From Diplonema japonicum (taxonomy: Eukaryota > Protista > Euglenozoa: Diplonemea), in the NCBI GenBank assembly GCA_964019335.1, contig OZ025665.1, positions 1 to 64,000 on the forward strand: DNA of 64,000 nucleotides, given 5' to 3'. Shown here in pieces: positions 1 to 44,470 of this stretch. Position numbers and translations under genes: made by a program. Each line of letters starts with the position of its first letter. Positions within the stretch are counted from its first letter, which is position 1. Below the pieces are notes generated by a model. It had not been told where the DNA came from, did not search any database, and saw only the letters and a program-made list of their open reading frames with translations.

Positions 1-3000
1 CCCTGTCAGGTAGAACGCCGCCTCAGCTACCTCCTCCTCCATTCCTGTAGCCGCAGCTTCCCGTTCCATCGCCTCCTGATCCTCCCGCTCCCTCCTCTCC
101 TCCTGGGAGTGCTGCTCCGCTTCCGAGTCCAGTTCCATCTTCTCCACCAGAACCTTCCCCTTCCTGATGGCCGCCCTCGCCACGCCCTTGACCACGGCCG
201 CCGACACTGCGGCCTTCATGTCGTTGAAGACCTCCACCCTGTGTCGTCGCGTCCTCTTCGCTGCTTCAGATGCCACCTCCTTCAAGAACTCCCTGGCCTG
301 CCCTGCCAGACCCCCAAACGTTTCCACCGCAAAAGGGCGGAACTGCTTGTGAGCCTCCTTGCACGCTTCCATGTGCTTCTTGTTCTTCGCCTCCTGGGCC
401 TTGTTCGCAGCGTAGCCAGCAGTTTTTGAGGCCTGTTCCAGGTTGCCCACCGTCCGAGGGTGCACCACCGTCACATCCACCGCCAGCCCGTGGCCGTTTC
501 CTTGTATCCCGCTCGGGAGGAGGATGTCCGCTGGCTTTGCCGATGAGCCAGCCACGATGTGCTTCTCCTCCCTGACCACATCTATCGCCCCCTCCCTGCA
601 CTGGTCATACAGGACGTCCCTCACCCCGTTGTGGCGGTGTTGCGTGGTCCCTCCGTTCTTGCAGCACTGCGCGTGGTCTCCTCGGGCGTCCATTTCCTCC
701 CCGCAGTTCAAGCACTGTGTGCCCTCTTGGTATAGAGGCGCCCCGAGCCACCACCTCGTCGCCACCTTGAACTCCTCATCGTTCATCAGGTTGCCATGGG
801 TGAGGGGGGCCACCAGCCATGCCCCGGCTCCTTGCATCGCCGTCCCGCGGATCCTGGCCTTGTCTTCCTTCCCTGCCTCCCCCAGGAGGCCTTGCCATGC
901 GCTGTCCTCGAGAATGAGGGACAGGAGCCTCTGCTGAGCTGCCTTCGGGTAGTCCTTCAAGAGCCCCACGCTCATCAGGGCCGCCTCGCCCGGGACCTTC
1001 TCGTTCAGCCACCTGCAGTGCTCCTCCCAGTCTGCCGCGGAATCCCAGTCGTACATGGGGTCGATCTCCTGGGAGATGTTCCGCGTCGCCACCAGGGATG
1101 CGATGTTCGCCACTCTCAGGTGCTCCTGGCAGCTCCTCAGGCCCAGCCCTCCCCTCCTTACTGCTAGGCTTGCTTGTTTCCACTGGTGCCCCTCCAGCTC
1201 CCCTCCCGCCAGGCACCCCATCGTCGATCTGACCAACTCGTCGAACCTCTGCATGGCGTCCCCAACATGGGTCTCAGGGATGGTCCGCATGAAGTGCACC
1301 ATCTTGCCGAAAGACTGGCAGCTGCGAAGGAGGGCGTACCCCGACTGTGCCCGCATCTTCGACTGCATCCGGAAGGTCTCCGCCAGCCTGTCGATCTTCC
1401 TGTGGAGGAAGGCGGTCGTGTACTCCGGTGTGCCGATCGGTGCCCCTAGCAGCTCGAAGTTGCCGTCGCGGGACACTTTGTCCTTTCTGAAGCCCTTGAA
1501 GCCCCACTCGGCTGGGTCGTTGGGCTTCTCCCCGCGTACCCAGATGAGTTCGCATTTCGCCGGCTTCACCGACAGGTGAACATCTGCGCTCAACTCCGTC
1601 AGGATGTCCACCGCCTTCCTCACTTGCTCCACCTCGCCCGCGAAGACCCCATCGTCCAGGTAAAACTGACAGATGTCCAAGTCCGTCTGTTCCTTGACCT
1701 TTTCAATGATGGGTTGGAGGGCGAGGGAGAAGAAGAGGGGTCCCAGAGGATCCCCTTGCTGCACACCCTCCTTCGACTGCAGGACCTTCCCATCCCCGTA
1801 CAGCAGGTTCGTGGGATTCTTGTAACAAAGTTGCGCCCATTTTTCCGCCCCAGCAGCCTTCGCCCTCACTTGTCGCAAGATCTCGTGCCTGCTCATAGAA
1901 TTGAAGGCGTTCGCGTAGTCCACCTTCACGATTACCCTGTTTCCCTCTCCCTGTTCCCTCTCCCTCTTCACGTATTGCCTAAAGGTGTGCACAGCCGCTT
2001 CCATGCCCGCCGGCACCGCCACCCCCAGTTGACCACCTTTCCTCAAGTACTCCGTGGCAACTGCAGGGGCTATTTTCACGACCAGGGCTTTCGCCACTAA
2101 CCTCCTCAGGCATTCGCCCACCGCGATTGGGCGAACTCCCTTGTCCGGCTTCTTCAGCGGAGTAAGTGAACCGCCTGCTAGGAACGGGACGACGTCACTC
2201 GGGACCTCCCCCTGGACCATCACATTGCACGTCCTTGTCAGCGACTCTGTGATCCCTTTCGCCTTCGCCCTGCCCTCCACAGCTGCCCGGAGATGTTCCA
2301 CGCTGAGGCCCGAAGGGCCCGCCGACTTCCCCTTGCCCAGGTCCTGCAGGGTGCGGACACACTCCAGGGGTGTAAGCACTTCCGCCTCTTCCGGCTCCCC
2401 CAGGTCCAGCAGGCTCGGGTCATGCATTGGTCTCGGGTGTAGCGCCTCGAGTTTCCTCTCTGTGTCCTCGTCGTCGTCCGCTAGCCCTACCGCCGTCAAG
2501 GCCGCATTCGCCTGGGAGAATCTCATCTCCCTGGTCAGCGTCTCCGCTCTGCTCAGGCGTGTCTCCTCCGTCGGCTCCTTCGGAGGTACATACTTAGGCT
2601 TCGGCAGGTCCTCCCACAGCTCCTTGTGTTCTCCCCTCAGCCACTGTGCGAGCTTGTTCTTGTTGTTCTTCTCGTTGGTCTTCCTCCTATCCTTCCCACC
2701 CTTGCGCTTCGAGAGGCACACCTTGGGGAGCATCATGAGCATGACCCAGGACTCGTAGGTCTTCTCTTCCACTACCCTGTCCATGCATTGTTTGAGTGCC
2801 ACACTCCAGTCCCTCCTCAGGCTGTCTGGGACCCACTTCAGCACCCTTACTTTTGCCGACATCACTTCATCCAGGGAGGGGAGCTCCGACCTGTGCGGCG
2901 CCGCGCATCTCTCGGTGGGGGCGAACTCTCCCATCTCCTTCAGGCACTCCTCGTGCGCACCCTTCTCCGTGCTCGCCAGTCTCCCACAGACACACGGGCG

Positions 3001-5611
3001 CAGGCCTATGCCCCGCAGATCCGCCTGCGATACCTCCGACTCCATCAGGTGATCGTTCAGGTGCTCCGTCAGGGTCGCGAACGACATGAAGGCCCTCCCC
3101 TTCATCCTTAGCGACCTCTCGCACCCATACACGGGGCAGTACAGGTCTGTCTTTGACTTCAACGGGGCGGCTTCCTCCGCTCTTCCGACCCCCGGGTCCA
3201 CTCTTTTCTCTACTGGATCCGATACCTTCATGAAGTCTTCGCTAGGTGCCGCTGCGGGTTGCACCCCTGGCGCCTGCGACCTCACGCTGTAGGCCCACCC
3301 TCTCATCCTTTCCATCTGTTGTGTGTCTGCCTCCACCGGGTCATAGTGCTCGCCGTTGAAGCCCATGACGATGTGCGACCCTGCCGTCCCCAGGTCCACA
3401 CCCTCTGCCGCTATCTCCAGCACCGACCACTCGCCTCCCACCACCACTAGGATAGGCCTCTGCCAAAGATCCGAGGCCGCCACCAGACATACGTGGTCTC
3501 CCCACGACTTGTCCTTGCTCATCTCCCTGACGTATTCCTCCAGGCCCTGGCTGCCCTCCTCCATGAAAGGCGAGTACTTCCCAGCCTCGGCCCGCATGTG
3601 CTCCATCACTTCTGCCCTCACCTCTGCGTGCTTCCGTTCATCTCGGTGGAGGAAGTGGGCGATGGCTCGGAACATACAGTTCCCGTCTCCCGCCACTGGG
3701 ACCAGTCTCGCGCCCGTGAACGATATGAGTGCATCCATTGTTGCTCTTCCGTCACCCTGGAGGCTTGGCTTGGCCTGCTGGGGCTTCTTCTTCTTCGACT
3801 TGGTTTTCCCGGCACCCGCCTGGTTCGAGCATTCCGGACACTTTTTGCTGCTAGCCGCGCATATTCCCGGGCAGCTCTCGCATATTCCAAAACCCATCTC
3901 CACTACCTGCTCCGCCGTGATGCCGTCTTGCTTCCGCCAGTGACCAGCGACATGGTACCGGAGTCCCCCCTTGGTCTTCGCCTTGAAGTCGCAGCTTTTG
4001 CACTCGAATGCTGCCCCTCCTCTCAAGGCACCTCCTGGGAGGGCGACACTGCGTCTCGAGCATGGGGGGGGCTCGGCGGTTGCTTTCAGCCCCTGATGGA
4101 AGGGGAGGGGAAGGGACTGGGGAAACGGAGGAGGAGGGGGTAGTGGAGACGAGGGAAGGAAGTGGGGGTTAGAAGAGCTCCTGCCCCCAACCTTGAATGA
4201 AGGTCTGCCAGGCCTTCTACCCACCCACCTTCTCCTCGTTCTCCTCGTGGGACGCGACCCTTCCCCTTGTGCACTTGAGTGGCCACCAAGGTCTGGGGCA
4301 GGGGCGAGGGTGACAAGGCAGCATAGAAGGTGGAACAGAATGGGGAGGGCAACCCTCCACCCACTACTCTCCACTTCCCTTTCCGCCTGCCCTTCCTCCA
4401 GCCTCCTGCGCCTCGTTCTTGCTTCCCTCCTGCCTGCGTTCTTCGCTTCCCTTCTCGCTCTCTTCCTCTCCTGCCTCCCTGCCTCTTCCCTGTCGGCCTC
4501 TGCTTCCCTGGCCGCCTGCCTCCTCCGCCTCCTCGCCTCCAGAGCAGCCTCCGTCCTCCTCCTCTTCCTCTCCTTCTTCTTCGGGGCTGCCTCCTTCTTC
4601 CTCCCAGTTCGCACACCCCTGCGCCTTTCCCTGGGTGGGTTCCACCGGGTCGCCCTGCCAGCCGTTTCCACCGTGTCTCCTCCCACTATTCCTTGGAGTG
4701 GGGGCAGGGCGTGCGTGGACGGTGGGCGCGGTCCCTCTTGGGGTCTCCTCAAAGTCCTGAGGTAGACCTTATTCCCCATATGCACGTCTACATAGGGGGG
4801 AAGGGGTGCCTTCGCTGGGGCAGGTGCGGGTTGGGTGTGTGGCCTAGGGGCAGGGTCCCGGTGGCTCTCAGGGGGGATGGGTATGTCTCCTACAGGGGGT
4901 GGGGGTGGAGTTATTAGTGGAGGGGGGCTGGTGGGGGGCTGCACATGCTTGTCCTTTTCGGGGGAGGAGGGTGGGTTTGGTAGTGGGAGGGGGTTGGTGG
5001 GGGGCTGTACAGGGGTAGGGAGGGGGCTGGTCTCACGCGGGTCCTCCGGATGGCAGGGGGTTGGGTCGGGGACACATCTGAGGGTGACGGAGACCCTCCG
5101 GCCCTCCGTCGCTCCTGCCGGGATGGTGTGTGTCCACCCGTGCCTCGCTTCCCCCTCCAGCACCGCCCACGACCTGGGGGGGACGTGGAAGCGTGCTTCC
5201 TTCCCACCCTTTCGGAACACCATTTTCGTCGGTGTTCCGAACGAGAGGATCAGCACGATCCCCCCCAGCACCCGGTCGTCGGTGTGCTCCGCGATCCCCA
5301 CCCCAGGCTGGTAGCTATTAACCAGCACCTGGTTGGGGACCCCCTCCAGCCCCGCCTCCTCCCACGCCCTCTTCACCCAGGGGACAACCCCCTCGGGGAT
5401 GCCCCTGGTGGGCCTCACCACCCCCCTCTTCCTCCACTCCCAACCCCACTGCTGCACCCTTCGACCGGTGCCACAGTGGGCGAGCTCCTCTCCCTCTTGG
5501 GTGAGGAGCTCCACCGGGAGCTGGAGGGGGAACGGCCCCGTCCGCATTCCCCCCGGCCTTTCCCCCTTCTCGAGCCGCCAGGGGGCGCCCTTCCTCTCCC
5601 CGTTCTTGCCC

Positions 5612-5613
<2 letters not shown>
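1..5613 (-). CDS. Retrotransposon polyprotein >1871 aa: AlkB - basic/TM region - ZnF - OTU - ZnF - RT - RLE - C-terminal extension (3'-partial)
   Basis: ATG at 5613 follows a pyrimidine tract. Hand translation puts AlkB (5077-5470), C2H2 finger (CKSC..HVAGH, ~3940-4005), OTU (GDGNCMF ~3670-3690; FNGEHY ~3345-3362), YLDD (~1650) and RLE (~170-720) in one frame. The ORF track lists no stop-terminated minus ORF in that frame between 1 and 5613. Confidence 0.88.
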
Positions 5614-5645
<32 letters not shown>

Positions 5646-5837
5646 AAGGAAAAGAGAGAAAAGAGAAGAAAGAAAAGAAAGGAAAGAGGATTTCTAGTGG
5701 GTTTCTATGTAAAAACAAACAAAAACAAAAAACAAAAACAAAAAAAAAGAGAAAGGAAAATACAGGGATTTCTAGGTGACTTTTTTTTTTTTTTTTTACA
5801 GATGAACACAGACAACAAAAGAAAGAAAGGAAAGAAA

Positions 5838-6215
5838 GGGAAGATAAACAAGTCTACTTTTTTTTTTTTTTTTTTTTTTTTCTAAGGGAGTTTGCCGACT
5901 TTGACTTGACCGAAGTTGTCAGGGGTCAACACAGTTGTGTCGGGCTTTTCGTGGCCGGAGTAGGGGCCGGGGGTGAGGCTGCTCAGCTGGCGTCTGATGT
6001 GAGACGCTGGTGGAGCTGAGCGCCGGGACTTGGGGGCGGGAGGAGGGAGGGAAACACCAGACAGCGCGCACAGCAACAGCACAGCACCGACAACCCACAC
6101 AGCAACACCACACACGCAGCGTTCGACTGCCTGCCGCCTATTTTTTTCTTTTAGGGGGCGGGTTGCTGTAGGTCAGGGGGAGGGTCCCTTCCCTTCCCTT
6201 CCCAATAAACTTTTT
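5838..6215 (-). repeat. Conserved 5' non-coding module of the retrotransposon family, copy 1
   Basis: Close match to 16104-16497; 6111-6179 is identical between copies. Several stems and a (GGGAA)3GGG run. Confidence 0.9.
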
Positions 6216-6216
6216 T

Positions 6217-6287
6217 AAAAAGGGGGACTTGAGAAAATAAATAAAAAGGGGGACTTGAGAAAATAAATAAAAAGGGGGACTTGAGAA
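6217..6287. repeat. 26-bp tandem repeat, ~2.7 copies (aaaaagggggacttgagaaaataaat)
   Basis: Seen directly at 6217, 6243 and 6269. Confidence 0.95.
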
Positions 6288-6289
6288 TG

Positions 6290-6738
6290 TTTTTTTTTTT
6301 TTTTTTTTTTCTTCAAAAGACACACAAGGCACGATAAATCTTAAGAGAAAATAAAAATATTCCAAAACAGACAATCAAGTTCCAACCTGGGAGGAAGGCA
6401 TGGGTTTCTCTTTTTCTTTATGGGAGGGAGAGGGGAAGAAGAAGAAGCAACTCCAAATGATAAAAATTCAAAAATAAAAATCTCAAAAAAGGCTTAAAAG
6501 AAGAAGAGGCAAATTCAAAAACATACTAGGGAGGAATGAGTGGGGCAGGGGGTAAAATTTAGGAGGGGGAAAGAGGGAGAATCAAAAAAGGGGAAAGGGG
6601 CAGAGTGACCAATGTCCACTCTCCTCCTGCGAGTCGTCTTGGATCCATTTTTTTTTTTTTTTTTGTTTTATAGTGTGTGTTGGGGGGGAGGGGATCCTTT
6701 CAATAAAGTACAGAAACTGTAGCTTTAGAATCGTTGGT
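6290..6738 (-). pseudogene. Processed retrocopy of a short trans-spliced, polyadenylated RNA (SL exon ... A21)
   Basis: SL exon at 6738-6701 is joined to non-GT sequence, followed by a short 29-aa ORF (MDPRRLAGGEW...) and a poly(A) at 6310-6290. Confidence 0.6.
6701..6738 (-). ncRNA. Spliced-leader exon copy, diplonemid type (not a complete SL RNA gene)
   Basis: Reads ACCAACGATTCTAAAGCTACAGTTTCTGTACTTTATTG, with the euglenozoan CAGTTTCTGTACTTTATTG 3' end. It is followed by AAAGG rather than the GT donor. Confidence 0.92.
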
Positions 6739-7444
6739 GGACGGGAAGCCCCTCGAGATTGATTCGCCGGAGGTCAGTGGGAACAGGGGTCTGGCGAGGA
6801 AGAGGGTGCCCTCGAATGAGGCTCAGTCCGCCCAGCGGACCCCAAAAGTGAAGAAGGGTCGCGGCCAGCTGGACGTAAGAGAGTCGAGCCTAGCCGCTGG
6901 CATGCGCGTGCTGTTCGGAGCGGTTCCGCCCCCTTCCCTGACCCCCTTGGCCGTGGGTAGCAGGCCGCCGCAGGAGGAAGGCGAAACGGTGCAATCTCCC
7001 ATTCCGGGGGCGAGCGGTGCAGGGCTCTACTCTCCAGAGGCGAGGTTCCCGGAGGCGCCTGTGGTGTCCATGGCCGCGGACCTGTGCGAGTCGGACGGGA
7101 TGGAGGCACATTCGGCCTCCTCCGGTGTGGACAGAGAGCCTTCGCCCGCTCGTCCGTCGCAGTCTCCCGTGCTGGGGGCTGAAGGCGGGGGGCGCCTCTC
7201 TCCGGAGGTCAGTACCCCAGAAACCTCCAACCCCGATGTCCGGGTAGAGGGCGGGGAAAAGGTCGCCAGAAAAAGGGTACCTTCCCACGAGACCCAGTCG
7301 GCCCAACGCGCCGCTAAGGTCGGGAAGGGCCCTGTCCAACGAGATGTGAGGGGGCCCCAGGGTGGTCGATCCACCCCCTGGGCTCGCAAGGGCCCAGGGC
7401 TTGAGCAGCCAACATTAAGGGTTCCTGAGGGAAGCCCACTTTAG
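6739..7444 (+). pseudogene. 5'-truncated GC-rich coding fragment with an internal duplication, probably from a mobile element
   Basis: The open frame starts at the SL junction with no true ATG and contains ARKRVPS.E.QSAQR..KV.KG..Q.DVR twice. Confidence 0.4.
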
Positions 7445-7448
7445 AATT

Positions 7449-7488
<40 letters not shown>

Positions 7489-7625
7489 CCATTACAACAA
7501 ATCGACAATGGGGAAAAAAAAAAAAAAGAAAGATAGCAAAAGAAAAAAAAAGGGGACCGGGAGTTTTCCCCCCTGAAGTTCCTTTGTTAAAACATGTTTG
7601 CTGTTGGGTTTCCGTTTCTTTTCTT

Positions 7626-7821
7626 TTTGGTTTAACTAGGAGTTTTCCTTCTACAGCTTGTTTGCTGATGGTTTTGAGTTGATTCTCTTTTATTTTTATT
7701 TTTATCTTTGGTTTAACTACAAGTTTTCCTACAGCTTGTTTGCTGATGGCTTTAAGTTGACTCTTTTTTATTTTTATTTTTGGTTTAACTAGAAGTTTTC
7801 CTTCTACAGCTTGTTCGCTGA
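7626..7821. repeat. Tandem repeat with 72-81 bp period, ~2.6 copies
   Basis: tttggtttaacta..agttttc..ctacagcttgtt.gctga at 7626, 7707 and 7779. Confidence 0.9.
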
Positions 7822-8758
7822 CGGGTGGGTTTATCGGGCGGGCTTCCATAGCTGGTGATCTATGGAAGCCTTCCCAGATTTTTTCTTTTTTTTTTTTTTT
7901 TTTTTTTCAGGCCGGGCTGGGGAAGGACGACAAGACCACCAACGGAGGAGAAACCGCTGCAGAAAGGGGAAAGGTGCAGGAAGACGAAGAGGACGAGAGG
8001 GCGTCTCACAAAGACTCCCTTTAATTCATATATCTTTTATTTTCCTTTTTATTTTTCTTTTCTTTATTTTCTTTCTCCCAACCCAACCCCCGAAAAAAAA
8101 GAAAAGAAAAGAAAAGATTCATTCCTCCCTAGTTTATTATATTTTGCATCAGGTTCGCCGAGAAAATAAAAGGAAAAACAAAGAAAGAGAACGGCAGCCA
8201 AATTTTAAATTTTTATTTTATCATCAAAGGAGGTTTGAAAAAGAGAAAAATTAAAGAGAAGAAAGAGACCTTTTTCTCCTCTATCGATAAGTGGTTCACG
8301 AACTCGAATCTTTATCACCACTTTTTAGTGCATGCCAGATTTTTTTTTTTTCTCCCGCCTTGTTAAAGAAGTTTTAATTTACTAATAAAAAAAAAAAGTG
8401 AAAAGAGGAGTAGAAGACGATCCGGTGGGGGGCATGGGAACCATAAACCGTGTCTTCCATCGCGATCGGCAAGGCGGGGGCTTTTCCGTCCCATGGGTGA
8501 AAAGAGGCGGATAAAACCACTATTCCGGACCCCCCCCCAACACTGAGCATGCACTTTTTCCCCCCAAAAAAAAAAAAAAAAAAAAAAAAAGGAAAAAAAA
8601 AAAAAAATCTAAGTGGTTCTATCTAGCCTGGCCGTTGTAGCACCTGTTCCCTATTCTTTTATTTTTCCCTTTTTTTTTTCTCAGAAAAAAAAAAAAAAAA
8701 AAGTTTCAGATCTTCCTATGGCGGGGGGGGGAGACCAGCCCCCCACACCCCCGCTGGC

Positions 8759-11700
8759 CTATCTGGCCAGCGAGCCTTTGGACCTCTTCTTGTGGGGTAT
8801 GGGCCCCACCCGTGCCCTCCCCGACTCGAGCTGCAGCCAAGCCACCGCACTGTTCACCGGGGCCCAGTTCTCCTTGTTGCGCACCTTGACCGTGTCCCGC
8901 ACCAGGTCGTCGCTCCCCAGCTCTTCCATCAACCTGTGCTCCGCCAAGAACTTGAACTGGGGCCCGGTCATCCCCTTGAGCTCACCCCTGCATATGTTGG
9001 CTTCGACCACGGTGCCATCCGCCCCCGTACCCTTCAGATAGATGTAGCCACCCTCCACACAATCCGAGTCAGTACTGGCCGATCGGGCCCGGGCCCGCTT
9101 CTTGTCCTTCTTGCTCCACTTCAGCTCTTCCAGGGTGGGGAGGTCCGTGGCAACCACCTCAGGCCGCCTCTCCCTGTCTTCCTCCTTCTTCCGGGCCAAC
9201 AGCCCAAGGTACCTCTCACGAGGAGGTACCTCTCAGGAGACGTCCTCGAACAACCCCGGGACCGTCACCACCGCTGACTGCAGGTCGACCTCTTCAACAC
9301 CCATCTTCCGCAGATGGTCCTGGACAGTGCGCCTCGTCTCCTTCTCGCAGGGCCCCCTCCCCTCGTAGACGTCGAGGGTGACCTTCCTTCCATCCCTCAC
9401 CCACGCCTTCACTTTGATCAGGTCCTTGACCTTTCCCACTGGGGCCCTTATCCTTGCGTCGCACCTCTCCAAGAACTCACGTAGTGTCACCTTGGTAGCG
9501 CCGGCTCCCGCCGCAATGCCCACTACCCCTTCCTTCCCCGGTGTCGGGTGGTGTCTGCACCCCCGGGTCTGCAACTTGACCACCCTCCATGCCGTTTCCA
9601 GAGTCCCCTTGAGCACGCCACCCTTGAAACGAACAGGTTGCACCGCCGAACACCCACACGCGTACGTGATCTGGAAATCCTGGACCGTCCTCGGGAACTC
9701 GAACTCGCGGTATGTTTCCGACTTCTGCACCTCACAACCCACAATGCGGCTGCGGCGCTCTCCGTCCGACCCACCTTCCAAGCTTGCGAAGTACTGCTTT
9801 ACCATCATGTATCCAAGTCCAGCGATACCAATCTGGCCAGCCATAGCCACCTCCAGTGGAACACCCAGCGACTCGGCCTTCGCAAGAAGCATCTCCTCAG
9901 TCCTCTCCCTTCCAGGGTCCGTTCCTTCTTCAAGGATGATCTCCACCCGGCCCTCGAACTGGATGATGAACTTGAGCAGTCGGTCCCCCGGCCTCGCCCT
10001 CAGTGGCACCATCGCTCTCGGAATTGGGATGCCCATCACCACATCAATCGGGTCAAGCTGAACGAAGTCTCCCCCTACTTCCACCTGCTGTTCCCTTTCC
10101 GGTGCCCCGACTCCCATCAGCTGATCTCCCTCCGGCGTCTGGATCCCACCCCTAGGTGTGTCAGGCCCCGACTGGCTGCCTCCGCTCGGTGCGTTCCCGC
10201 CCTCTTTGGTCCCTTCGGGGGCGTCATCCGCCTGCGGCTTCAGAGTCCTCCCACCGCCCTGTCTCTTCGCAGCTTGTTCCCTACAGAATTCGCTCACGGT
10301 CATCTTCCTCGTAGCAGTTGTCGCACTCTGGTCCCCCTTGTTCGAGTCCCTCTGGGCCTCCGTATCCCCCTTAGGACACTCGTCCAAGGTCTGGTTCACC
10401 GCAGCGTCAGTCGCCCCTTGTCTCTTCCCATCTTCCTGGGCCTTCGGGTCAAGCTCCCCTCCCTGCCCAGCCCTCTCGCTGGATCCTGTTCCGGCCATCT
10501 CCGTGTCTTCTCCTCCCGGCGAGGCTGCTTCGAGTCCTGCTCCCGCTTTCCCTTGTGTTCCACCCTCCACCGGTTCCGCCTTTCGCTGCTGCTGCATTCG
10601 GGCGTCCAGGTCCTTCTTCGTCTGCTCCAGAAGGGCATCCAGCTGGTGGGCCACCGTGATTGGGGGTCCGCCTCCCTGTCCCTTCACTTCCCGGACGACT
10701 CCTCAGCTTCGGTGGTTTTTTCATTGCCGAAGGAGTCCTCTGTGAGGTCAGTGTTGGATTCAGTGTTGGGTTCGTTGTTCGCTTCCTCGTTGTCCTTTTT
10801 TTCCTCTTCGCCGTCCGGTACCGGGGGCCCTGGATCCAACTGTACAGGCCCTTTGACTAACAGCGCCCCTGCTTCGATCTCATCATGGCCGTTGACACCT
10901 CTTGGACCACGCGCCTGTGTATCGAGACTCTGTCCCCGTGAGCCCGCGCAGCTATGCTCCTGGACAGTTTCTTCGTGAGGTAGACTGCTGCCTCCCCGAA
11001 CCCCCCAAAGGTCTCCATCGCGAAAGGTACAAAGGCCACGCGTGTCTTGGCGAGCTCCGCCTCATACTTCTGGCGCTTGTAGTGTTCCGCCTTCGCCGCT
11101 GCGTACCCCGCAGTCTTCGCCGCCTGGTTGACACAAGACTCGTTCCTCGGGTGCACGATGACCACGTCCATAGCCATTGGGCGGGAACCCCCCACCCCAC
11201 CTGGGAAGAACACGTCCGCCGGGCGCTGGGACGACCCCGGGATCAGCCCCGTCTTCTCCATCGTTGCGCTCACCCCGGCCCACTGACAGTGTCTGTGGAT
11301 GGTCTCCTTCACCCGGTCGTGCCTCGCAATCCTGGCGTTGCCGCATCCCTGGGCATGGTCACCCCATACGTCCATCCCCTCAGTCTTGCACCTCGGGTCG
11401 TGGCAGCTCTCACCCTGCTTGTAGACCGGAGCCCCCAACCACCACTTGATCAGAGCCCCAAACTCGTTGTCCGACAGCTGGTTGTAGAAGTCAGGCGTCG
11501 CCGTCAACCACGCCCCCGCATAGTGCATTGACTCCGACATCAACCTCGCTCTCGAGCGTGCATCTGCTTTCGCCAAGAGGTCCTCCAGCGCCTTCTCATC
11601 AAGCACCCTAGAGAGCCACCTCTGGCTGCAGATGTGGGGGGCCTTGGCCACCATGTCGGGTGTAATCTGCATGCCGCCCTTCGTCCTGTTGAACCACTCG

Positions 11701-14700
11701 AGCCAGCTCCCCCATACACCCCCTTCCAGCCCATGTTCGTATTTGGGATCCAGCTCCTTGCACAGCTTCATCGTCGACGCCCTCGAAGCCATGTTGGCCG
11801 CGCGCAGGTGCTCCTGGCAGCTCCTCATCCCAAGCCCACCGACTTTTACGGACAGTTTCGCCTGCTGCCATTCTTTCGACCCGTTCTCGAACTGCATGCC
11901 GCACACCTTCGACATCGTCTTCCGCACCATCTCGTCGAACCTGTGCATGACCCCTCCCACATGCGAGTCTGGGACCACTCTCATGTAAAACACCAGTTTG
12001 CTGTATGAGCTGCAATACCGGAGAAGTGTGTACCCTGTCTGCCTCCCCACCTTGGTCAGCATGTCGAAGTTCTCTTCCAGCGCGTCCAAGCGTTTGTTCA
12101 GAAAGGCTTGCGTGTACTCCGGCGATCCTATCGGCGCCCCCAGGAGCATGAAGTTCCTCTCTTTGTGGAAATTCTCTTCTGTCAGGCCATCGAAGCCTGT
12201 GTCCTCCACTGTCTGGGGGAGGTCGCCACTAACCCATATGAGCTCGCACTTCTGGGGTTTCACTTTCAGCCCTATCATTCCGCTCAGCTCACACAAGATG
12301 TTGTACGCCTTTCTCACTTCATCCACATTCCCCACAAGGACGCCATCGTCCAGGTAGAACTGGAGGATGTCCAGGCTGCAGTCTTCACTTATCTTGTTCA
12401 CCAGGGGTTGGATGGCCAGAGAGAACAGCAGCGGTCCCATCGGGTCCCCCTGTTGCACCCCTTCCTGGGACTTAATCACCTTTCCGTTGTAGTATAATTG
12501 GGAGGGCACCCTGTAGCACCAATCGGCCCACGCATACAGCCCCGACGCTTGCTCATAGGCCTGTGAGCACAGCTGCCTCCGACAAACACTGTTGAAGGCG
12601 TTGGCGTAGTCGATCTTGAGGATCACCTTGTTTTCCTGCTTGTTGCCCCGTTCCCTGTCCACATACTGCCTGATGGTGTGTATAGCCGCCTCCATTCCAG
12701 CAGGGACCGATACCCCCACCTGGCCGCCTTTCTTCAGGTACGAAGAGGCCACTTCCGGAGCGATCTTCTTCACAAGGGATTTCCCCACCAGCCGACGCAG
12801 CACATCCCCAACGGCTATGGGCCGCACGTCCCTGTCGTTCTTCTTGAGGGCCACAAGGTTCGCCCCTGCCATCAGCGGAGCCACCTCCCTAGGGGCCGTG
12901 CCTCTAGCTAATGCGTTGACTGCCCTCGTCACCGACATCAAACAGCCTTGAGACTCAAAAGCTCCGTCCACCGCGTCCTTGATGTGCTGGGCTCTCAGAC
13001 CAGTCGGTCCCGCAGCAGTCCCCCTCGGGAAGTCCCTGATTGCGTCCAGCACTTCTTCTGGCAAGACTTCTACCGCTTCCTTCGTCTTCGCCGGGTTGTC
13101 CCATTGGGGGTGTAGTGGCTCTGGATGTTTGCTCTGCAGCGCTCTCCAGCAATCCTCATTGTCTTCCGCCAGCCCCTGGGCTACAAGCGCCGCGTTTCCT
13201 GCCGAGAACCTCCCTTTGCTGCACAGTTCCGTGGCCCTGGCGACCTTAGAGACCTCGTCGTTCTTAGGTTCCCCCTTCTCACCTGATTCCAGCTTATTCC
13301 AGAGGGCCATGTAATTTCCCTTCTCCCACTCCTCCATCTGGCCTGGACACTCAGCTCCGTCTCCTTGTCCCGCTTCTTCCCTCCCCTCTTCTTCCACAGG
13401 CAGGCTTTGGGGAGCATCGCCACCAGCAGCCAAGCCTCCTCTGTGTTGTCCTTCACCGCTCGGCCCAGAGTGTGCTTAAGGGTAAGCCCCCACAGTCTTT
13501 GAAGGCTCGTCGGGATCGACCCCATGGTCGTGACGTTCATGGCGGCTATGGTTTCCAGGCTGGGTAACTCGGTCCTCGTCGGGGCCGGCGGGGGGGTCGT
13601 GTATTCCCCTTCCCTTCGCACCGCCTTTTTGCACTCGTCGTGGCACCCCTGACCCTTCCACACACAGCCCCTGCACACCAGGCACCTCTCGAGGTCCAGT
13701 CTCCTCAGAACGCTCTCCGGGATCTCATCACTCTCCAGGTGCCCATCCAGGTGACACTTCCATACCCTTGTCGAGTTGAACGGGGTCGTGCTTTTGCACT
13801 TCGACCTAGCGCAGTTCGCCACCGGACAGTACAGGAATTGCTGGTTCCTTGCCCCCATCTGGTCCAACACCCCTGCCTTCCCATATCCAGGGATCGCACG
13901 GTCTATTATGTCCCACTCCCCGATGTCCTCACCCGGGGCCTCGGAGGGTTGCTTACCTGCCTTTTGTAGAGCTACCGATTGGGACTCATCAAGGAGCATC
14001 ATCATCGACTCCTCCTCTCCGACTGCATACTCGTAGTGGTTGCCGTTGTACGCCAGCACCACCACCTTCTCGTGGTCGGAGTTGTACTCCCCTATCATCA
14101 GGACTGGGTTGTTCCCCCCAGCAACCACGAGTATCGTGCGGCCAAACGCTTGTCCTGCGGCTGCCAGGCACAAGTGGTCTCCCCACGTCGCTGCCGTGCC
14201 CATCCCTTCCAAGTACCGGTCCCAACCCTCACTGCAAAACGGGGCATAGTGCTCCTCCCGGTGTTTCATCCATTCTACAACCTCGCTCCTGATGTGGGTG
14301 TGGTCGCCGTAGGCTTCCCCGAGCGAACCGGCCAGGGCGTGGAACATGCAGTTCCCGTCCTTCTCCGTCGATCTCCTCGTCAGCTTGAAGCTCTTCATGA
14401 TCTCGTCCACTGACTTGCCGGCCCTGGGTTGTTTGTCGGGGTTCCACAGATTCCGCTGCCTGTGTAGTGCACAGTGCGTCTGGTTCGACGAGCACGCCGC
14501 AGCACACGTTCCACAGAGGTTCACCTTCATGCTCCTCGCCTGCTCTTGTTTCACAAAATGATGGTGGACCGCATTGAGGTGTTTAACTAGACAGCTTGCC
14601 ACACTGGTGCGGAAAGAGCAGTCTTCCATCCGGCATTGATGTTTGTCTGATCCTTCTTTTTCCCCCTCCTTCTGCGCCTCCATGTGCTCATCATCCAAAT

Positions 14701-16072
14701 CCATGGGGGGAGGGTCACCACCTCCTTGCAACGCGTCCCCTGCCAGCGTCAAGTCCGCAAAGGGGTCCAGGTGTTCGGCCTGAAAGAGCTTATCCTCCGT
14801 CTCAGCTCGTTCCTTCGCCGCTTGCTTGGCGTCCTCCTTCTTTTTTCTGCGTCTTGAGCTTCTAGGCGGGCCCAAGTACACCGGCAGGTAGTGACCTCTC
14901 GATCCGCGTCTTGTCTTCTTCAGCTTTACCGGTCCGAATCTCTGGGTCGGGCCAGCACCAGCTTTCCCCACCATCACTTCCGACATGGCCCAGAGCGACA
15001 TCAGCCCCCCTATCCAAACTGAAGTGCTTCCCACCAGGGTGCCTCCTACCGCTAGCCAAGCGAGCTCCCCGGCGGACCATTCATCCCCTCGGGGCCCCAC
15101 CTGTACCCTTGACCTGCGGGTGGTCCTCCTGTCGCTCCCCGGCCTCTTCCACAACACTGCAGCATGCAGGAAGGAGGGGGCCATCCCGATGCCCGCCCCC
15201 AGCACCTGCCTCACCCCTGGGATCAGCAAGAGGGAGAACAGGGCGACCCAGGCCCACACCCCCAGGTGCTCCCATCTCATCCCTTCCTTGCTGTGTCCCG
15301 TCCGTCTGCGGTGCCTCCTTGCACCGGTTGCAGCCCCAGGTGCCGGGATTCTGGGTGCCAGGGGTTGGGCTCCAGGCGTTCCCACCTCGGTCAGCTTCAG
15401 CCCCATTGCAGGGTCATCTGGCTTCTGTTCCAGGGCGGCCTCGTGTTCCTCTCTGCGGGCCCTCCTCCTCCCTTCTTTCCTCGCACGACGGTGCCTTTTC
15501 TTCTCCTGTCTGGCAGCCTCCCTCGCCCCCTCCCTCGCCTTGGTCCTCTTCTCCCGACGCCTCTGAAGGGCCGTTTCGCTCCTGTGCCTCCTCTTGTTCT
15601 TCTTCCTCTTGGGCGCTGGCTTAGGTTCCCTGCCACCCATGGCAATCCAGGGGGCTCTTTTCTGTCTTCTCACAAGGGTGTGCAGTGGTGCTCTCACGTC
15701 GCTCGCAGCCTCCGCCCCAACCACACCTTGGCAGGCGGTGGGGGCGGGTGCTGGGTCCCCCTGGTTGTTTGAAAAGAAAAAAGGTTCCTTCTTGTTTGTT
15801 TTTTTTTTTTCTTTCCCTTCCACCCTCAAAAAAAGCCCCCGGCCCTTGGGGACCAGGGTGTACACCTCCGTAGAGGGTCCAGAAAAAATGGGGGGCAGAG
15901 AGGGAGGAGCACTACCTTCTCTCGGGCGTGCTGTCTCTCCCTCTGCCTTTTTTTCCTCCGAAGAGGGTCTGTTTTTCACCTCCGTGGAGGGTCCCTCTGG
16001 GGAGGGCTCTAAAAATGAAAAAGGGGGGGACAAATGGGGGGGAGGAACACTACCCTCTCTCGGGGGTGCCAC
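8759..16072 (-). pseudogene. Disrupted polyprotein of element 2
   Basis: ORFs 13181-16072, 10857-13433, 9233-10687 and 8759-9199 join through three 1-nt frameshifts (~13338, ~10865, ~10690) and an in-frame TGA at 9233-9235. The joined protein is collinear with element 1. Confidence 0.82.
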
Positions 16073-16103
16073 CTCTTCCCCTCTCTCTCTATAGGAAAGA
16101 AAA

Positions 16104-16497
16104 GGAAGATAAACAAGTCTACTTTTTTTTTTCTTTCTAAAGGGGGTTTGCCGACTTTGACTTGACCGAAGTTGTCAGGGGTCAACGCAGTTGTGTCGGG
16201 CTTTTCGCGGCCTGGAGTAGGGGGCCGGGGGTGAGGCTGCCCAGCTGGCGTCTGATGTGAGACGCTGGTGGAGCTGAGCGCCGGGACATGGGGGTGGGAG
16301 GAAGGAGAAAAACACCGGACAGCGCGCACAGCAGCAGCAGCACAGCACCGACAACCCACACAGCAACACCACACACGCAGCGTTCGACTGCCTGCCGCCT
16401 ATTTTTTTCTTTTAGGGGGCGGGTTGCTGTAGGTCAGGGGGGGGGGGGGGGGGGGGGTTCCTTCCCTTCCCTTCCCTTCCCTTTCCAATTTTAAAAA
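16104..16497 (-). repeat. Conserved 5' non-coding module, copy 2
   Basis: Matches 5838-6215. Confidence 0.9.
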
Positions 16498-16645
16498 ACC
16501 AAGTGGTTGCTTTATTTCTCGTGCGGGTTTGCGGACTACTCTTGTACTTAGAAACTTTCCGAGGATTGCAAAAGAGGGTCAGTTGTTGACATTTTTTTCC
16601 GGACGAGCTCATATCACGCTCAACATTATATTCACTCCCAGCTTA

Positions 16646-16732
16646 GCTTATAGAGAAATAAGGCCCAGGAGTGACATAATGTACAGGAGTGATATTATGT
16701 TACATTATGTCACTCCTGCACCTATTTTAAGC
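16646..16732. repeat. Palindromic element with 18-bp perfect arms and an internal direct repeat (MITE/transposon-end-like)
   Basis: caggagtgacataatgta (16666-16683) pairs with tacattatgtcactcctg (16701-16718); the spacer is a degenerate copy of the left arm. Confidence 0.8.
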
Positions 16733-17461
16733 CAAACTCCCTAGAAACACAGAAAACTATGGGAAGAAAGCCTAACGCGATGGAGAGGACGTCTCGGAGT
16801 AAATAGATATTTTTTAAAAGGTCGTCTGCGTGGCCTGGCTTGCCCTTTCAGGCTTGGGAGTGAAGTCGTGCCACTTCATGGAGGAGTTTCAGCGGGCATT
16901 TCAGGCGGCTGATGAACTTGGCCTCCGACACGGACTCGACCAGTATAGCACAGCCGCGGCCCCAGCTATAAGGGCATTGCCCCCCCCCCCCCCCCCAGCC
17001 CAGCGCAGTTCACAGTGCCGTTTCCGGACAGACAATTAAGGTACACGGTACCATGACGCAACCCGATTGTGACGTCGGTTCAGCTCCGCAACAGAGCACA
17101 GCAGAGACTACCTTCACTGCTGTCTCACGTATTAGTACTTGACCTCTACAGCTTGCCTGTTGCCACCCACCCACGTTGCTGTCTATGTTCACGTCATAAC
17201 TTCCTTCGGTGTAAACCCGCCCGCCATTTGGTGTTTCCCTGTAAGAGGTAAATCTCGAAAAAGCAAACCAAACCAAAATAAAACGAGTAAAAACTCGATA
17301 AAACTTCAGTGTGCATGGGGGTGCTCACTGTTCCGAGGGAAAAAAAAAAAAGAAAGGACGAAAAGGTCGCATCACTGCCATGAAAAAAACAAAACTCTAA
17401 CAGTATGGCATGTGTGTGTCATAGAGATGGGTGAAAGACACGAGCACACGCACAGTGTCGC

Positions 17462-19843
17462 TCAAAAGCATTCATCTTCGGAGCTTGCGTCGTCACACGA
17501 CAGAGCGGTCGAAGGCGACGAGCATGGACTAGAGGGGACCGAAGAATCCCCTAAGCTGGAGGTGTCATCTGTCCGCTCTAAGGAATCAAGTTCTTTGATG
17601 TAAGTAACGCTCTTCGGAAGATGCTCTTCATTGGCTTCCTCGAGCTCCTGTTGCAAGTCGTAGCCTTCAGCAGTGAAGGTGAGGCACGGGAGCTCGCCAT
17701 TGTACTCGAACAGCTTCCTGATCTCATCAGGAGACCACTTCGAAGGGTTGTGGACGGCTGTCTTGTCGACTAACATATTACTTGACAACTTCATCTTTAG
17801 TAGTTGCCTTTGCAAGATCCTCTCCTCCAAGGTCCCTCTGCACACCAATCTGTATATTTTGCACGGCCTTGTCTGTCCTTCTCGCCATATCCTAGCCACC
17901 GCCTGCAGGTCATTGGCTGGGTTCCAATCCATATCAACAAGTACCAGCCTCGAAGCACCGACAAGATTCAGCCCTACACCGCCTGCCTTGCAGCTGAGGA
18001 GCATCACATCGATGTCGCGCGAGCTGTTGAAAGAATCCACGATGGCCATGCGCTTGGCACTGGGAACCTTCCCATCAAGCCGCTCGCTGCGCAGGCCTGA
18101 CAAGGAACTGGCTATCATATCCAACACTTTCACAGACGATGACACCACGACGCACTTGTGCCCTTGTGACTTGAAGGAGTCAAGGAGGTGCTTTAAAAGA
18201 GGTATCTTTCCTACGTTATCCTTACTACTGATTCCGTTCGCAGCTTTCTGGCACGCTTCGCGTAGGTCGGAGTTGATTGCCTGCTCACCTAAAATGAGAG
18301 AAGGGTGAGTTAGGACCTGCTTAAGAGCAGTTATGGACTGCAAAGGATCAAGCAAGCTCCCTGTAAGGCTCAATATGTGCTTGTATAAATGCTCCTGCAA
18401 AAGTGACGGCTTGAAGAATAACAAAACTTCAGATTTTGGGGGAAGGTGGCTGCTGATGTCGGCAGAAGTCCTCCGCAAGATGTACTGCTCAGTAAGATCC
18501 TTCAGCTTACTCTGCATCGTGTTGCCCGTGACTTGCTGTTCCTTGCTGCATCCTGCTTCTGCCATCTTTGTGATGTGGGACGCGTATTCTTTCAGATACC
18601 CCTTCTTGTCACCAAGGAGACCTGGGTTCACGAAGTCAAGAAGTGAGTAGAACTCAGCAAGGTTGTTCTGCACAGGCGTGCCAGTGATCAAAACTCTCCT
18701 AGTTGTTGGTATTTTTTGCAACACAGTGGAGATCTGTGTGTTAAAACCTTTTAGTCGGTGCCCTTCATCGCACAACAATAAGTCACATGACACATTTGAG
18801 AGTGCGCTGCTGTAGCTTCTGCACATCTCGTAGGACAAAATGAGGACGTTGCACATGCTATTTAGGTTGAAAGTTTTGATCTTCCCTGAAGTGTAGTCTT
18901 TCTTGTCAGCTGCTGCCAACAACGTAGGTTGCGCCCTTGGGTTGTTTCCGAGCCACTTCTTAAACTCTCTGCCCCAGCTTCCAACCAGGCTCGACGGCAC
19001 CACAATGACCACCTTCTTTACGCTACTATGTTTGTTCTTCACATGGGCCTGAATAAGTGAGATGCACTGCAGAGTTTTTCCTAATCCCATCTCGTCAGCT
19101 AGTATGACGCCCCTATAGCCACTCGGCCTGCTAGTGACATCGTACAAAAACTTCACACCTTCCCGCTGATGTGGTCGGAGATGCCTGCCGAGGGGCACAG
19201 CGGGCAGATGGGCCAGCACCTTTCCGTTGCTCTCTTTGAGAATTAAGGTGCCCTCTGGAAGAGTGTCTGGCGTCATCTCAGGTTGAACAGCGGCCTTTTT
19301 TCCACCATGCAGAGGGCGCTTTAGGGAGACTGGCAACCTTTTAACTATGGATGGGGCTGGCGCCGATGGACAAGCGTTAGGAATAGAAGACGTCTGCTTG
19401 GCCCCTACTTCAACAAGGAACGCACCGCACTCAAGTTCATCGCCCATTTCCCATTCCTTGAGACTCTTGAAACTCTTCCCGATAACCTTGTCCGTCTCAT
19501 CATGCAGTGTCAACGTGCGCTCTGCGCACACCATAGTCCCCGGCTCCCAATTCTTGTGCTTCTTACTTGAATTCTTTGCAAAGTTCACCTCATACACGAC
19601 ATCGCCTCCCACACCTGCCTGTCCCACGGCGGGCTGTGGTGCGGCTTCTACGACGGCAGGCCGCTTCCGCCCTTTCAGATTAGGCCTTAACACAGATGCT
19701 TTTGTTTCGTCTTGTTTAGCCTTTTCGCCATCCCCTAAATCAATGTCGATGTCCAGTAGCCCACCCGACTCAGATGCAGATTCACGTGCCTCGACACGCG
19801 GCTTCTTGGCAAATGGCGTCACGAAAGCCTTCCTCTTAAACAT
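17462..19843 (-). CDS. RAD54B: RAD54B/Rdh54-like SNF2 DNA translocase
   Basis: LRPHQREGV, ILADEMGLGKT, CDEGHRLK, TGTPVQNNL, AGGVGLNLVGASRL, WNPANDLQAVARIWREGQ, plus an N-terminal KKHKNWE motif. Likely ATG at 19843. Confidence 0.85.
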   Translation of the reverse strand: MFKRKAFVTPFAKKPRVEARESASESGGLLDIDIDLGDGEKAKQDETKASVLRPNLKGRKRPAVVEAAPQPAVGQAGVGGDVVYEVNFAKNSSKKHKNWEPGTMVCAERTLTLHDETDKVIGKSFKSLKEWEMGDELECGAFLVEVGAKQTSSIPNACPSAPAPSIVKRLPVSLKRPLHGGKKAAVQPEMTPDTLPEGTLILKESNGKVLAHLPAVPLGRHLRPHQREGVKFLYDVTSRPSGYRGVILADEMGLGKTLQCISLIQAHVKNKHSSVKKVVIVVPSSLVGSWGREFKKWLGNNPRAQPTLLAAADKKDYTSGKIKTFNLNSMCNVLILSYEMCRSYSSALSNVSCDLLLCDEGHRLKGFNTQISTVLQKIPTTRRVLITGTPVQNNLAEFYSLLDFVNPGLLGDKKGYLKEYASHITKMAEAGCSKEQQVTGNTMQSKLKDLTEQYILRRTSADISSHLPPKSEVLLFFKPSLLQEHLYKHILSLTGSLLDPLQSITALKQVLTHPSLILGEQAINSDLREACQKAANGISSKDNVGKIPLLKHLLDSFKSQGHKCVVVSSSVKVLDMIASSLSGLRSERLDGKVPSAKRMAIVDSFNSSRDIDVMLLSCKAGGVGLNLVGASRLVLVDMDWNPANDLQAVARIWREGQTRPCKIYRLVCRGTLEERILQRQLLKMKLSSNMLVDKTAVHNPSKWSPDEIRKLFEYNGELPCLTFTAEGYDLQQELEEANEEHLPKSVTYIKELDSLERTDDTSSLGDSSVPSSPCSSPSTALSCDDASSEDECF

Positions 19844-19925
19844 GACTACTGGCACCTGGTGAATTAAACTTTTAAGGGCAGGCCCTTTTAATAAAAGGTA
19901 ACAAATACAAGTGACAACGCGAGAG

Positions 19926-43907: not shown

Positions 43908-44470
43908 GGCCGCCCTCCTGTGATGTGTGTTGGGCAGAAGGAGAAAAACTAAAAAAGATCACATCTCAACATGCTAGGTCAGCCTTGCGCACCTCTTTGG
44001 ACACATAAAGGGAAAGAATGAAAAGAGGAGGGAAAAAAAAACGAACTCTCTGAAAAGTAAAACAAGAGAATGTGAATAAGCACGTAATCGAAACTGTGTT
44101 ACCTTTCAGAAGAGATCAGAGGGGGAAGAAGGGGAACAGATAGAGAAGGGAAAGAAAAGGGGTTCTTTTCTTTTAAGCGGCATGCAGCGATGTACAGCCG
44201 CATTCAAGGGTAAGACAACTCATGCAAAAATGAACAGGGGAAAGAAAAAGAAACCGTGTCTGTAACGCAAGAGACATCCGAAGTAGCCTTCAGGCTTACC
44301 TTATCTGCCAACTGTTCCCCATTCTTGTTTCTGCCTAAGCCCACCTGTCTCCTTTTCATCTCTTTTTCCTTTTTCCTCTTTTCAAAAAATCTAAGTTCCC
44401 TCCTAAAAAAAGAAAAGGAAGAAGAAAAAACACTATGAAAACAGCGGGGAAGAAAGAAACAGTCTTTCCC

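Follow-up and report, generated by a model that had tools for sequence, protein, structure and literature searches.

A predicted ALKBH8/6-type oxygenase domain at the N-terminus of a CRE/SLACS-like non-LTR retrotransposon polyprotein in Diplonema

Oxygenases of the AlkB family have been described in retrotransposons, in viruses and as standalone enzymes (papers are cited here by PMC number and from excerpts). In the orchid Phalaenopsis, a Ty3/Gypsy long terminal repeat (LTR) retrotransposon has a fixed AlkB-family oxygenase, which is ALKBH5-like, is encoded by a separate open reading frame (ORF) and has demonstrated activity on N6-methyladenine (m6A) (PMC9289625). In flexiviruses and closteroviruses, AlkB lies upstream of an OTU domain in the replication polyprotein and has been patchily kept and lost; these viral domains are similar to bacterial group 1B and to ALKBH2/3, and they repair RNA (PMC544882, PMC2553587). 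Standalone, single-domain oxygenases of the ALKBH8 type are found in bacteria, protozoa and giant viruses (PMC4051686). Trypanosomatid elements of the CRE clade (SLACS, CZAR, CRE1/2) combine zinc fingers, a reverse transcriptase (RT) and a restriction-like endonuclease (RLE) in a single ORF and insert into spliced leader (SL) RNA genes, and the excerpt of the paper at hand lists no AlkB or OTU for them (PMC12278014). Here we describe a putative CRE/SLACS-like non-LTR retrotransposon, element 1, whose polyprotein begins with a predicted AlkB domain, and a related element 2 that lacks this domain. Both lie in a 64,000-nucleotide stretch of Diplonema japonicum DNA (contig OZ025665.1, positions 1 to 64,000; hereafter the window).

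Like the orchid Gypsy element, element 1 is a retrotransposon with an AlkB-family oxygenase, but it is a non-LTR element, and its oxygenase is fused to RT and endonuclease and appears to be of ALKBH8/6 type. With the viral replicases it shares an AlkB placed upstream of OTU in a replication polyprotein and a patchy distribution; the viral AlkBs are of other groups and belong to RNA viruses, and we infer that the two AlkB-OTU combinations are of independent origin. With the trypanosomatid CRE elements it shares the euglenozoan host, the single ORF, zinc fingers, RT and RLE, whereas its copies appear dispersed behind A-tracts. Its AlkB is placed in the same subfamily as the standalone ALKBH8-type enzymes (30-43% identity to unnamed members), from which the element domains differ by a QQWG lid, loss of the second Tyr, loss of the Phe after HxD, a short C-terminal loop and the fusion to a transposon. 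Among the papers listed in our literature searches on AlkB and retrotransposons, no non-LTR element with AlkB came to light, the orchid Gypsy being the only retrotransposon case. The genome paper of Diplonema papillatum mentions SLACS and, separately, a dozen AlkB homologs, which are read there as a sign of gene regulation; the excerpts of its text and the seven supplementary files searched, excluding the repeat and DNA-modification sections of Additional file 1, contain no link between AlkB and an element (PMC10161547). AlkB clades in euglenozoans are treated in PMC4738411.

A single stop-free minus-strand frame runs from 5853 to the window edge and holds AlkB, OTU and RVT_1. The order in element 1 is AlkB, Pro-rich linker, basic tract, hydrophobic segment, zinc finger, OTU, zinc finger, RT, CCHC, RLE. 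Its features are given below; residue conservation refers to a 121-row AlkB alignment, which consists of the element 1 domain and 120 of the 150 listed matches (the short ones plus the D. papillatum model P0126).

1..5613, minus strand: element 1, single ORF, 1871 codons when counted from the first ATG, running off the window edge (frame analysis)
5605..5690, minus strand: pyrimidine tract followed by the first AG (5606-5605), a probable acceptor site for trans-splicing (by inference)
5077..5547, minus strand: predicted AlkB / 2-oxoglutarate (2OG)-Fe(II) oxygenase domain, ALKBH8/6-type, at the N-terminus of the polyprotein (Pfam, PDB sequence matches, AlphaFold, Foldseek)
5311..5319, minus strand: NxY motif (NSY) for 2OG binding, Y invariant and N in at least 90% of the 121 rows
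5278..5286, minus strand: HxD iron ligands (HTD), invariant in 121 of 121 rows
5128..5130, minus strand: distal His iron ligand, invariant in the alignment
5077..5097, minus strand: RxSxTxR motif (RX5R of the AlkB family), final Arg invariant in the alignment
4627..5076, minus strand: Pro-rich linker (sequence)
4357..4626, minus strand: Arg/Lys/Glu-rich basic tract, with a counterpart in element 2 and in the D. papillatum element (sequence, alignment)
4297..4353, minus strand: hydrophobic segment after the basic tract (hydropathy)
3940..4002, minus strand: C2H2-type zinc-finger-like motif (our reading of the sequence)
3343..3690, minus strand: OTU cysteine protease, Cys and His motifs intact (PF02338, residues 643-726, E-value 3e-16)
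3040..3138, minus strand: second zinc-finger-like motif, before RT (sequence)
1540..2154, minus strand: reverse transcriptase with QQGDPLG and YLDDG (PF00078, RVT_1, residues 1155-1359, E-value 6.5e-19)
277..714, minus strand: CCHC knuckle and RLE (RH...PAD...D; our reading of sequence motifs)

A sequence-only reading of this DNA had placed a catalytically complete AlkB domain at 5077..5470, at the N-terminus of element 1. The domain was recovered by Pfam (PF13532, residues 67-180 of the frame product, E-value 2.4e-11, 44.6 bits against a curated cut-off of 31.2), and its motifs lie where they had been placed, with RRVQQWG at 5463-5443, PNQVLVNSYQPG at 5337-5302 and RRVSVTLR at 5100-5077 (minus strand); judged from these residues, the set of iron and 2OG ligands is complete. 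The start of the domain, however, lies about 75 nt further upstream, likely at the Met codon at 5547. A long pyrimidine tract runs up to the first ATG of the element and the next AG is at 5606-5605; trans-splicing at this AG would leave Met 5547 as the start codon, which is consistent with the same start in P0126. A sequencing artefact or chimera was ruled out, the frame being open throughout and the same layout being present in an independent assembly.

With the 121-row alignment, AlphaFold gave a model of the domain with a predicted local distance difference test (pLDDT) score of 90.3 and a predicted TM-score (pTM) of 0.86; the single-sequence fold made without the alignment (pLDDT 41.5) was unusable. 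Every match listed by Foldseek against the PDB belongs to the AlkB family, the best by E-value being ALKBH6 (4.7e-12) and ALKBH8 (1.7e-11). The double-stranded beta-helix named beforehand as a check on the domain was therefore obtained, and the domain is predicted to adopt the AlkB fold.

The subfamily was addressed by sequence comparison. An AlkB family profile matched ALKBH8 over its whole length (8-183, E-value 7e-52) and ALKBH6 at 3e-29, while E. coli AlkB, ALKBH2/3 and ALKBH5 followed at 1e-16 to 1e-13, ALKBH5 fitting the core only (58-182, E-value 3e-15). Taken alone, the element 1 domain matched the solved structures of ALKBH8 (E-value 7e-9) and ALKBH6 (4e-6), in agreement with the ALKBH6/ALKBH8-like pattern suggested earlier. 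ALKBH5 did not match it at E 0.01 and matched the D. papillatum protein at E 0.94 only; the D. papillatum element AlkB alone gave the same subfamily ranking. By these comparisons the domain, lid included, is classed as ALKBH8/6-type and not as ALKBH5- or E. coli AlkB-type. The partners of eukaryotic ALKBH8 were not found: no RRM, zinc finger or methyltransferase domain of Pfam accompanies it, and the C-terminal loop is short, with no ALKBH8 zinc loop. Two observations weigh against this assignment or its use as a guide to substrate. The TM-scores to ALKBH5 and NMAD-1 (0.82-0.84) exceed those to ALKBH8/6 (0.75-0.77), so the fold does not settle the subfamily; and the AlkBs of element 1 and the D. 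papillatum element both have residues in the lid and active site that are unusual for the family (Y to W, Y to K or Q, F to L), and with such a changed lid the relatives may predict the substrate poorly.

The best named relatives of the RT-RLE part of element 1 are D. papillatum 'SLACS 132 kDa' proteins, with 38-41% identity (among the best 120 of 166). Element 1 has the single ORF with RT and RLE that is typical of CRE/SLACS elements, as well as two N-terminal zinc-finger-like motifs and a CCHC knuckle. We take the motifs at 3940..4002 and 277..714 to be the C2H2 zinc finger, CCHC knuckle and RLE; the RLE region has no Pfam match, and its assignment rests on motifs and on alignment to proteins named SLACS. 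On this sequence evidence element 1 is classed as a CRE/SLACS-like non-LTR retrotransposon, its relatives being 'SLACS' by annotation name alone.

It should be mentioned that the segment following the basic tract resembles a membrane helix in element 1, element 2 and the D. papillatum model P0275, though their sequences show no detectable similarity there (hydropathy 2.2, 1.8 and 2.3 for element 1, element 2 and the D. papillatum element, respectively). As a separate observation, the clade seems to acquire ubiquitin/SUMO proteases repeatedly: the RT relatives P0006, P0008, P0100, P0101, P0106, P0107 and P0123 carry such proteases of other folds (PF00443 or PF02902), and elements 1 and 2 carry OTU.

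An exhaustive protein search with the element 1 AlkB gave 2328 matches, and ranks 3-5 of the 150 listed were occupied by D. papillatum models. The sequence clusters of these three long models contain 'SLACS' proteins, and AlkB was present in three of nine further cluster members scanned; P0275 and P0276 combine AlkB with OTU (E-value about 7e-4, below the cut-off) and RT, and P0275 also holds RLE. The AlkB-bearing models (KAJ9442719, KAJ9464152, KAJ9446222, KAJ9435373, KAJ9439924 and KAJ9438978) bear the automatic names 'SLACS 132 kDa protein', 'tRNA methyltransferase' and 'hypothetical'. Their AlkB copies, on six contigs, are identical to each other over 141 aa (6/6), keep all ligands and are 43-45% identical to the element 1 AlkB. 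The domain order of KAJ9442719 (AlkB, basic tract, OTU, RT, RLE) is that of element 1. Between element 1 and P0275 the identity is 43-44% in AlkB, 28% in OTU, 35% in the region before RT, 46% in RT and 38% in RLE; by this measure AlkB appears about as conserved as the RT core between the two species. The D. papillatum models thus have the same AlkB position and domain order as element 1, but they represent another family in another species.

Because six D. papillatum models on six contigs carry AlkB, one of them with the same domain order, a chance capture is unlikely, and it is very probable, judging from these comparisons, that AlkB is a selected part of the element. The single-copy host capture raised earlier as an alternative does not agree with six identical copies in D. 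papillatum and conservation between species. One point weighs against this conclusion. The D. papillatum models are automatic, P0126 and P0275 differ downstream of AlkB, and the fusion in that species may pass through predicted introns; the fusion of element 1 is uninterrupted in the window. Among 124 rows of RT relatives, the AlkB profile gave P0275 as the sole clear match (P0085 was marginal, E-value 0.013), but only 18 of these rows have at least 600 aa upstream and most are uninformative on AlkB. No AlkB was detected in the best 120 of 166 RT relatives. Word-index protein searches with the AlkB region gave no match at 1029-3276 aa and one short match; since they failed to recover even the D. 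papillatum proteins, the absence of other matches is uninformative. Scans of viral and metagenome contigs for AlkB or a neighbouring domain found nothing, and an RT scan gave nine short loci, none with AlkB (0/9).

Element 2 starts at about 16476 on the minus strand and continues to below 9233; it occupies at least three frames, one shift lying near 13340. Its parts, and the leader that it has in common with element 1, are the following:

13181..16174, minus strand: N-terminal frame of element 2 with duplicated Pro-rich motif, basic tract, zinc finger and OTU, no AlkB (Pfam, alignment)
10857..13475, minus strand: RT-RLE frame of element 2, offset near 13340 from the frame upstream of it, with 45% identity to element 1 (Pfam, alignment)
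9233..10702, minus strand: probable C-terminal extension of element 2, in yet another frame and without a Pfam match (D. papillatum relatives are extended too)
16093..16476, minus strand: 5' leader copy of element 2 (alignment)
5828..6203, minus strand: 5' leader of element 1, structured, 89% identical to that of element 2 (alignment, folding)

A profile scan over all six frames of the window gave one AlkB match, in element 1 (E-value 2e-43; the next was 4.5), which bears out the claim that the domain is absent from element 2; AlkB is thus optional in this element group. The duplicated Pro-rich motif reported at this place in element 2 is also real (15902-15944 versus 16040-16082, 81% identity). 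Homology of the two elements had been proposed from the basic tract onward. The basic tract does align (score 127, reached by 0/300 shuffles, though it is compositional), as does the first zinc finger (1/300 shuffles as good), but the stretch between them is unalignable (163/300 shuffles as good).

The leaders are 89% identical between elements 1 and 2, compared with 65% for the RT DNA, which indicates that 5' ends can be exchanged or homogenised. The region 5850-6210 folds better than 99 of 100 shuffles (z = -3.2). The leader has no Rfam match, a scan of 1-20000 having given matches below the curated thresholds only. The leader, which contains a long hairpin, may owe its high identity to a recent exchange of 5' ends; it may also be a small mobile unit of its own, or serve as a conserved promoter or ribozyme. 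Two further observations concern element 2. Upstream of its leader, a 28-nt inverted repeat with an internal direct copy is located at 16656-16728. Downstream of RLE (9233-10702 and 8759-9232, minus strand), the extension has a non-repetitive part without a Pfam match, and the D. papillatum relatives run far past RLE as well.

The history of the domain was studied with trees of both parts. The RT-RLE tree contained 18 rows, with the 17 best of 113 rows covering more than 600 aa (two near-copies of P0275 omitted) and no trypanosomatid row. Elements 1 and 2 are sisters in it (100/100), and the D. papillatum families group separately; the approximately unbiased (AU) test rejects a clade that joins the two AlkB-plus elements (p 1e-11). 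Two further D. papillatum rows start too far downstream to include the AlkB position and are therefore uninformative on AlkB. In AlkB trees with rows drawn from 150 of the 2328 matches (those of 149 and 39 rows being quick trees), the AlkBs of element 1 and the D. papillatum element were sisters in all four. The pair was supported by a Shimodaira-Hasegawa-like approximate likelihood ratio test (SH-aLRT) value of 87 with 150 rows, 94 with 149 rows and 87 with 39 rows (mixture model, long-branch decoys), and by bootstrap 93 and SH-aLRT 59 with the 50 nearest rows. The two domains have 13 rare residues in common, the most for either (runners-up 9 and 12; median 4), among them a W in place of Y in the QQYG motif and an L where 93% of the others have Phe. 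Both species retain the complete set of iron and 2OG ligands over an RT-RLE distance of 1.66 substitutions per site.

Taken together, the RT tree, the AlkB trees and the common domain order make one old capture in diplonemid elements followed by loss in element 2 the simplest and likely reading of these sequences. An alternative is a transfer of AlkB between element families through recombination at the 5' end, or two separate captures. We regard this as unlikely, although less so than any of the alternative functions discussed below. The rejection of an AlkB-plus clade by the RT tree and the 89% leader identity, against 65% for the RT DNA, speak for it, as does the spread of plant-virus AlkBs by recombination (PMC2553587). 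The AlkB trees leave room for transfer or double capture: their support is moderate with no branch starred, the branches are long and only part of the matches entered them. On the other side, AlkB position and downstream order are the same in both species, one loss explains the rows with a known N-terminus, and AlkB is as diverged as the RT core, so any transfer must be old. The earlier view of AlkB as a swappable module is therefore retained as far as the domain is optional; swapping itself is unproven.

As to the donor, no supported sister group was seen in the trees of listed matches. The nearest non-element AlkB proteins among these matches are mostly unnamed metagenome entries, and two long ones carry cap-methyltransferase or NADAR partners. 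Atlas clusters for AlkB are mostly viral, and the best BFVD matches are giant-virus proteins.

Copies in public sequencing runs were compared over positions 1-5750 of the window, using contigs of four of 15 listed runs, three of which cover the AlkB bins. In run X2 the contig depth is 200-250 at the 3' edge, drops in steps to 86 over OTU-RT and is lowest, at 17-34, over AlkB. Truncation at the 5' end would produce this pattern, although depth is no measure of copy number. Several element copies start behind A runs on the element strand (among the loose ends shown; 31 more exist), and one copy, weakly documented by 20 letters of one contig, begins behind an A-tract at 5219, inside AlkB. Two diverged AlkB-like copies were found in X2, X5 and X6, one consisting of 5527-5221 only and the other skipping 243 nt. 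In the first of them in X6, 9 of the 17 listed differences (out of 21 in the X6 record) are synonymous, compared with 24-30% expected (p 0.011-0.042), and 8 of 14 when the codon beside the indel is left out.

Three aspects of these runs weigh against AlkB as a maintained part of the element. Both diverged copies look decayed, truncated or deleted; none of the public contigs of the four runs spans AlkB to RT; and, given such copies in host runs and its absence from element 2, the domain is dispensable. It should also be mentioned that in X6 the diverged truncated AlkB-like copy (5221-5527) has a contig depth of 106, with most of element 1 below 12, hinting at a separately amplified or expressed AlkB derivative.

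Possible functions can be considered in the light of the ALKBH8-type enzymes of bacteria, protozoa and mimivirus. All of these repaired etheno adducts in DNA in vitro, two repaired 3-methylcytosine (m3C) and some preferred single-stranded DNA; repair of 1-methyladenine (m1A) was nearly absent and none of the proteins tested reactivated methylated MS2 RNA phage (PMC4051686). In non-LTR elements, generally, the polyprotein binds its own RNA and is delivered with it to the target. The single polyprotein of element 1, beginning with an ALKBH8/6-type oxygenase, would travel with the element RNA in this way: after trans-splicing at AG 5606 and translation from Met 5547, it would bind its own RNA and reach the target site, where the OTU protease may release the AlkB domain. 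The domain would then oxidise etheno or m3C-type lesions away, whether in the target strand once opened, in the new cDNA or in the RNA template, and more copies would reach full length. By analogy with the relatives, we tentatively propose such lesion removal from single-stranded intermediates in cis, a chain that as a whole is possible rather than probable and whose least certain step is the substrate. Against it, the authors of the enzyme study regard the repair activity of the protozoan proteins as a promiscuous 'ghost' with little rescue in vivo and see hydroxylation of the tRNA wobble uridine, found for two protozoan enzymes, as the true role (PMC4051686); human ALKBH6 binds single-stranded DNA and RNA, with no demethylase activity seen (PMC8892091).

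Another function, in line with the alteration of host base modifications that the sequence-only reading had raised as its second possibility, would be counter-silencing, in which the domain oxidises a pyrimidine mark of host DNA (base J, hydroxymethyluracil or 5-methylcytosine (5mC)) at the new insertion and so allows transcription. We consider this unlikely: it rests on chemical analogy alone, and we know of no AlkB that acts on base J. The analogy is that ALKBH8 hydroxylates the C5 side chain of a uridine (mcm5U to mchm5U; PMC4051686) and that base J is a C5-substituted uracil in Diplonema DNA, which stops RNA polymerase II (Pol II) in kinetoplastids (PMC10325913); J and 5mC pathways are both present in D. 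papillatum (PMC10161547). Truncated copies start behind A-tracts, so the targets would be T-rich on one strand, and the lid residues are unlike those of the family. However, glucosylation makes the base bulky within duplex DNA. The preferred substrates of ALKBH6/8 are unpaired nucleic acids or tRNA (PMC8892091). In the special case of a base J eraser, hydroxylation of the C5 side carbon of glucosyl-hydroxymethyluracil would free glucose and leave formyl-uracil, and an element that brings the enzyme to a T-rich target would free its own insertion of the mark that stops Pol II. This special case is highly doubtful; if true, it would give a transposon-coded counter-silencer and the long-sought J-removing activity.

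Equally unlikely, in our estimate, is the removal of m6A, m1A or m3C from the element RNA, which would ease translation or reverse transcription and whose m1A and m6A forms had been suggested by the sequence-only reading. The orchid Gypsy AlkB demethylates m6A in vitro (PMC9289625), plant-virus AlkBs repair RNA (PMC2553587), the domain is placed in cis, as part of a protein that presumably binds the RNA encoding it, and its TM-scores to ALKBH5 are high. These precedents, however, belong to other AlkB subfamilies, and ALKBH5 fits the profile core alone, in contrast to the whole-length match of ALKBH8. The suggestion is weakened further by the failure of ALKBH8-type proteins on methylated RNA phage and their near-inactivity on m1A (PMC4051686).

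A somewhat less probable role is that of a tRNA modifier, hydroxylating wobble uridine as eukaryotic ALKBH8 does and tuning translation of the long ORF. ALKBH8 is the closest solved relative, and in Tetrahymena a standalone enzyme that has neither RRM nor zinc finger hydroxylates mcm5U; bacterial and mimivirus members, on the other hand, showed no tRNA hydroxylation (PMC4051686). Element 1 has none of the RRM, methyltransferase and zinc loop of ALKBH8, and a benefit acting in trans would also serve AlkB-less elements and be harder to select. Finally, a neutral passenger or a non-catalytic nucleic-acid-binding module, which would suit the dispensability of the domain and the decayed-looking copies in public runs, is very improbable given the ligands kept in both species over the RT-RLE divergence and the synonymous excess.

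With element 1, nucleic-acid oxygenase cargo would extend from plant RNA viruses and one LTR lineage to RLE-encoding non-LTR retrotransposons, the cargo here belonging to another AlkB subfamily and being fused in frame, a fusion that both species have kept. For annotation, at least six D. papillatum AlkB-bearing gene models are copies of this transposon domain and may be among the published dozen of homologs. The genus Diplonema includes a transformable model species. The role of the standalone ALKBH8-type enzymes is open (PMC4051686), and a transposon-selected version, with AlkB-plus and AlkB-minus sister families, makes it testable.

Among the other features of the window, one resembles a spliced leader:

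6701..6739, minus strand: SL-like 39-mer, with no SL intron GT after it (sequence match)

It was compared with a table row named 'Euglenozoa 14', which we take to be the Diplonema spliced leader. The two are identical at 36 of 39 positions, with one match in the window and none in 100 shuffles (table in PMC3795323, from an excerpt). The 39-mer lies about 500 nt upstream of the element 1 leader; there is none at element 2, and the loose ends show A-tract junctions. At 6739-6600 (minus strand), a near-full SL exon, differing in its first base, continues into non-intron sequence with an A-tract and a short ORF. The arrangement resembles either the 5' terminus of an SL-capped RNA that has been retroposed or the left flank of an SL-gene insertion. 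Between a long A-tract and the 39-mer lies a GC-rich block of about 700 nt (6740-7444) with open frames on both strands. Further along, a host ORF of 2576 aa occupies 36228-43958 on the minus strand; its product presumably combines a Cys-rich N-terminus with numerous cadherin-like 'PVNDPP' repeats and has a membrane segment at the C-terminus.

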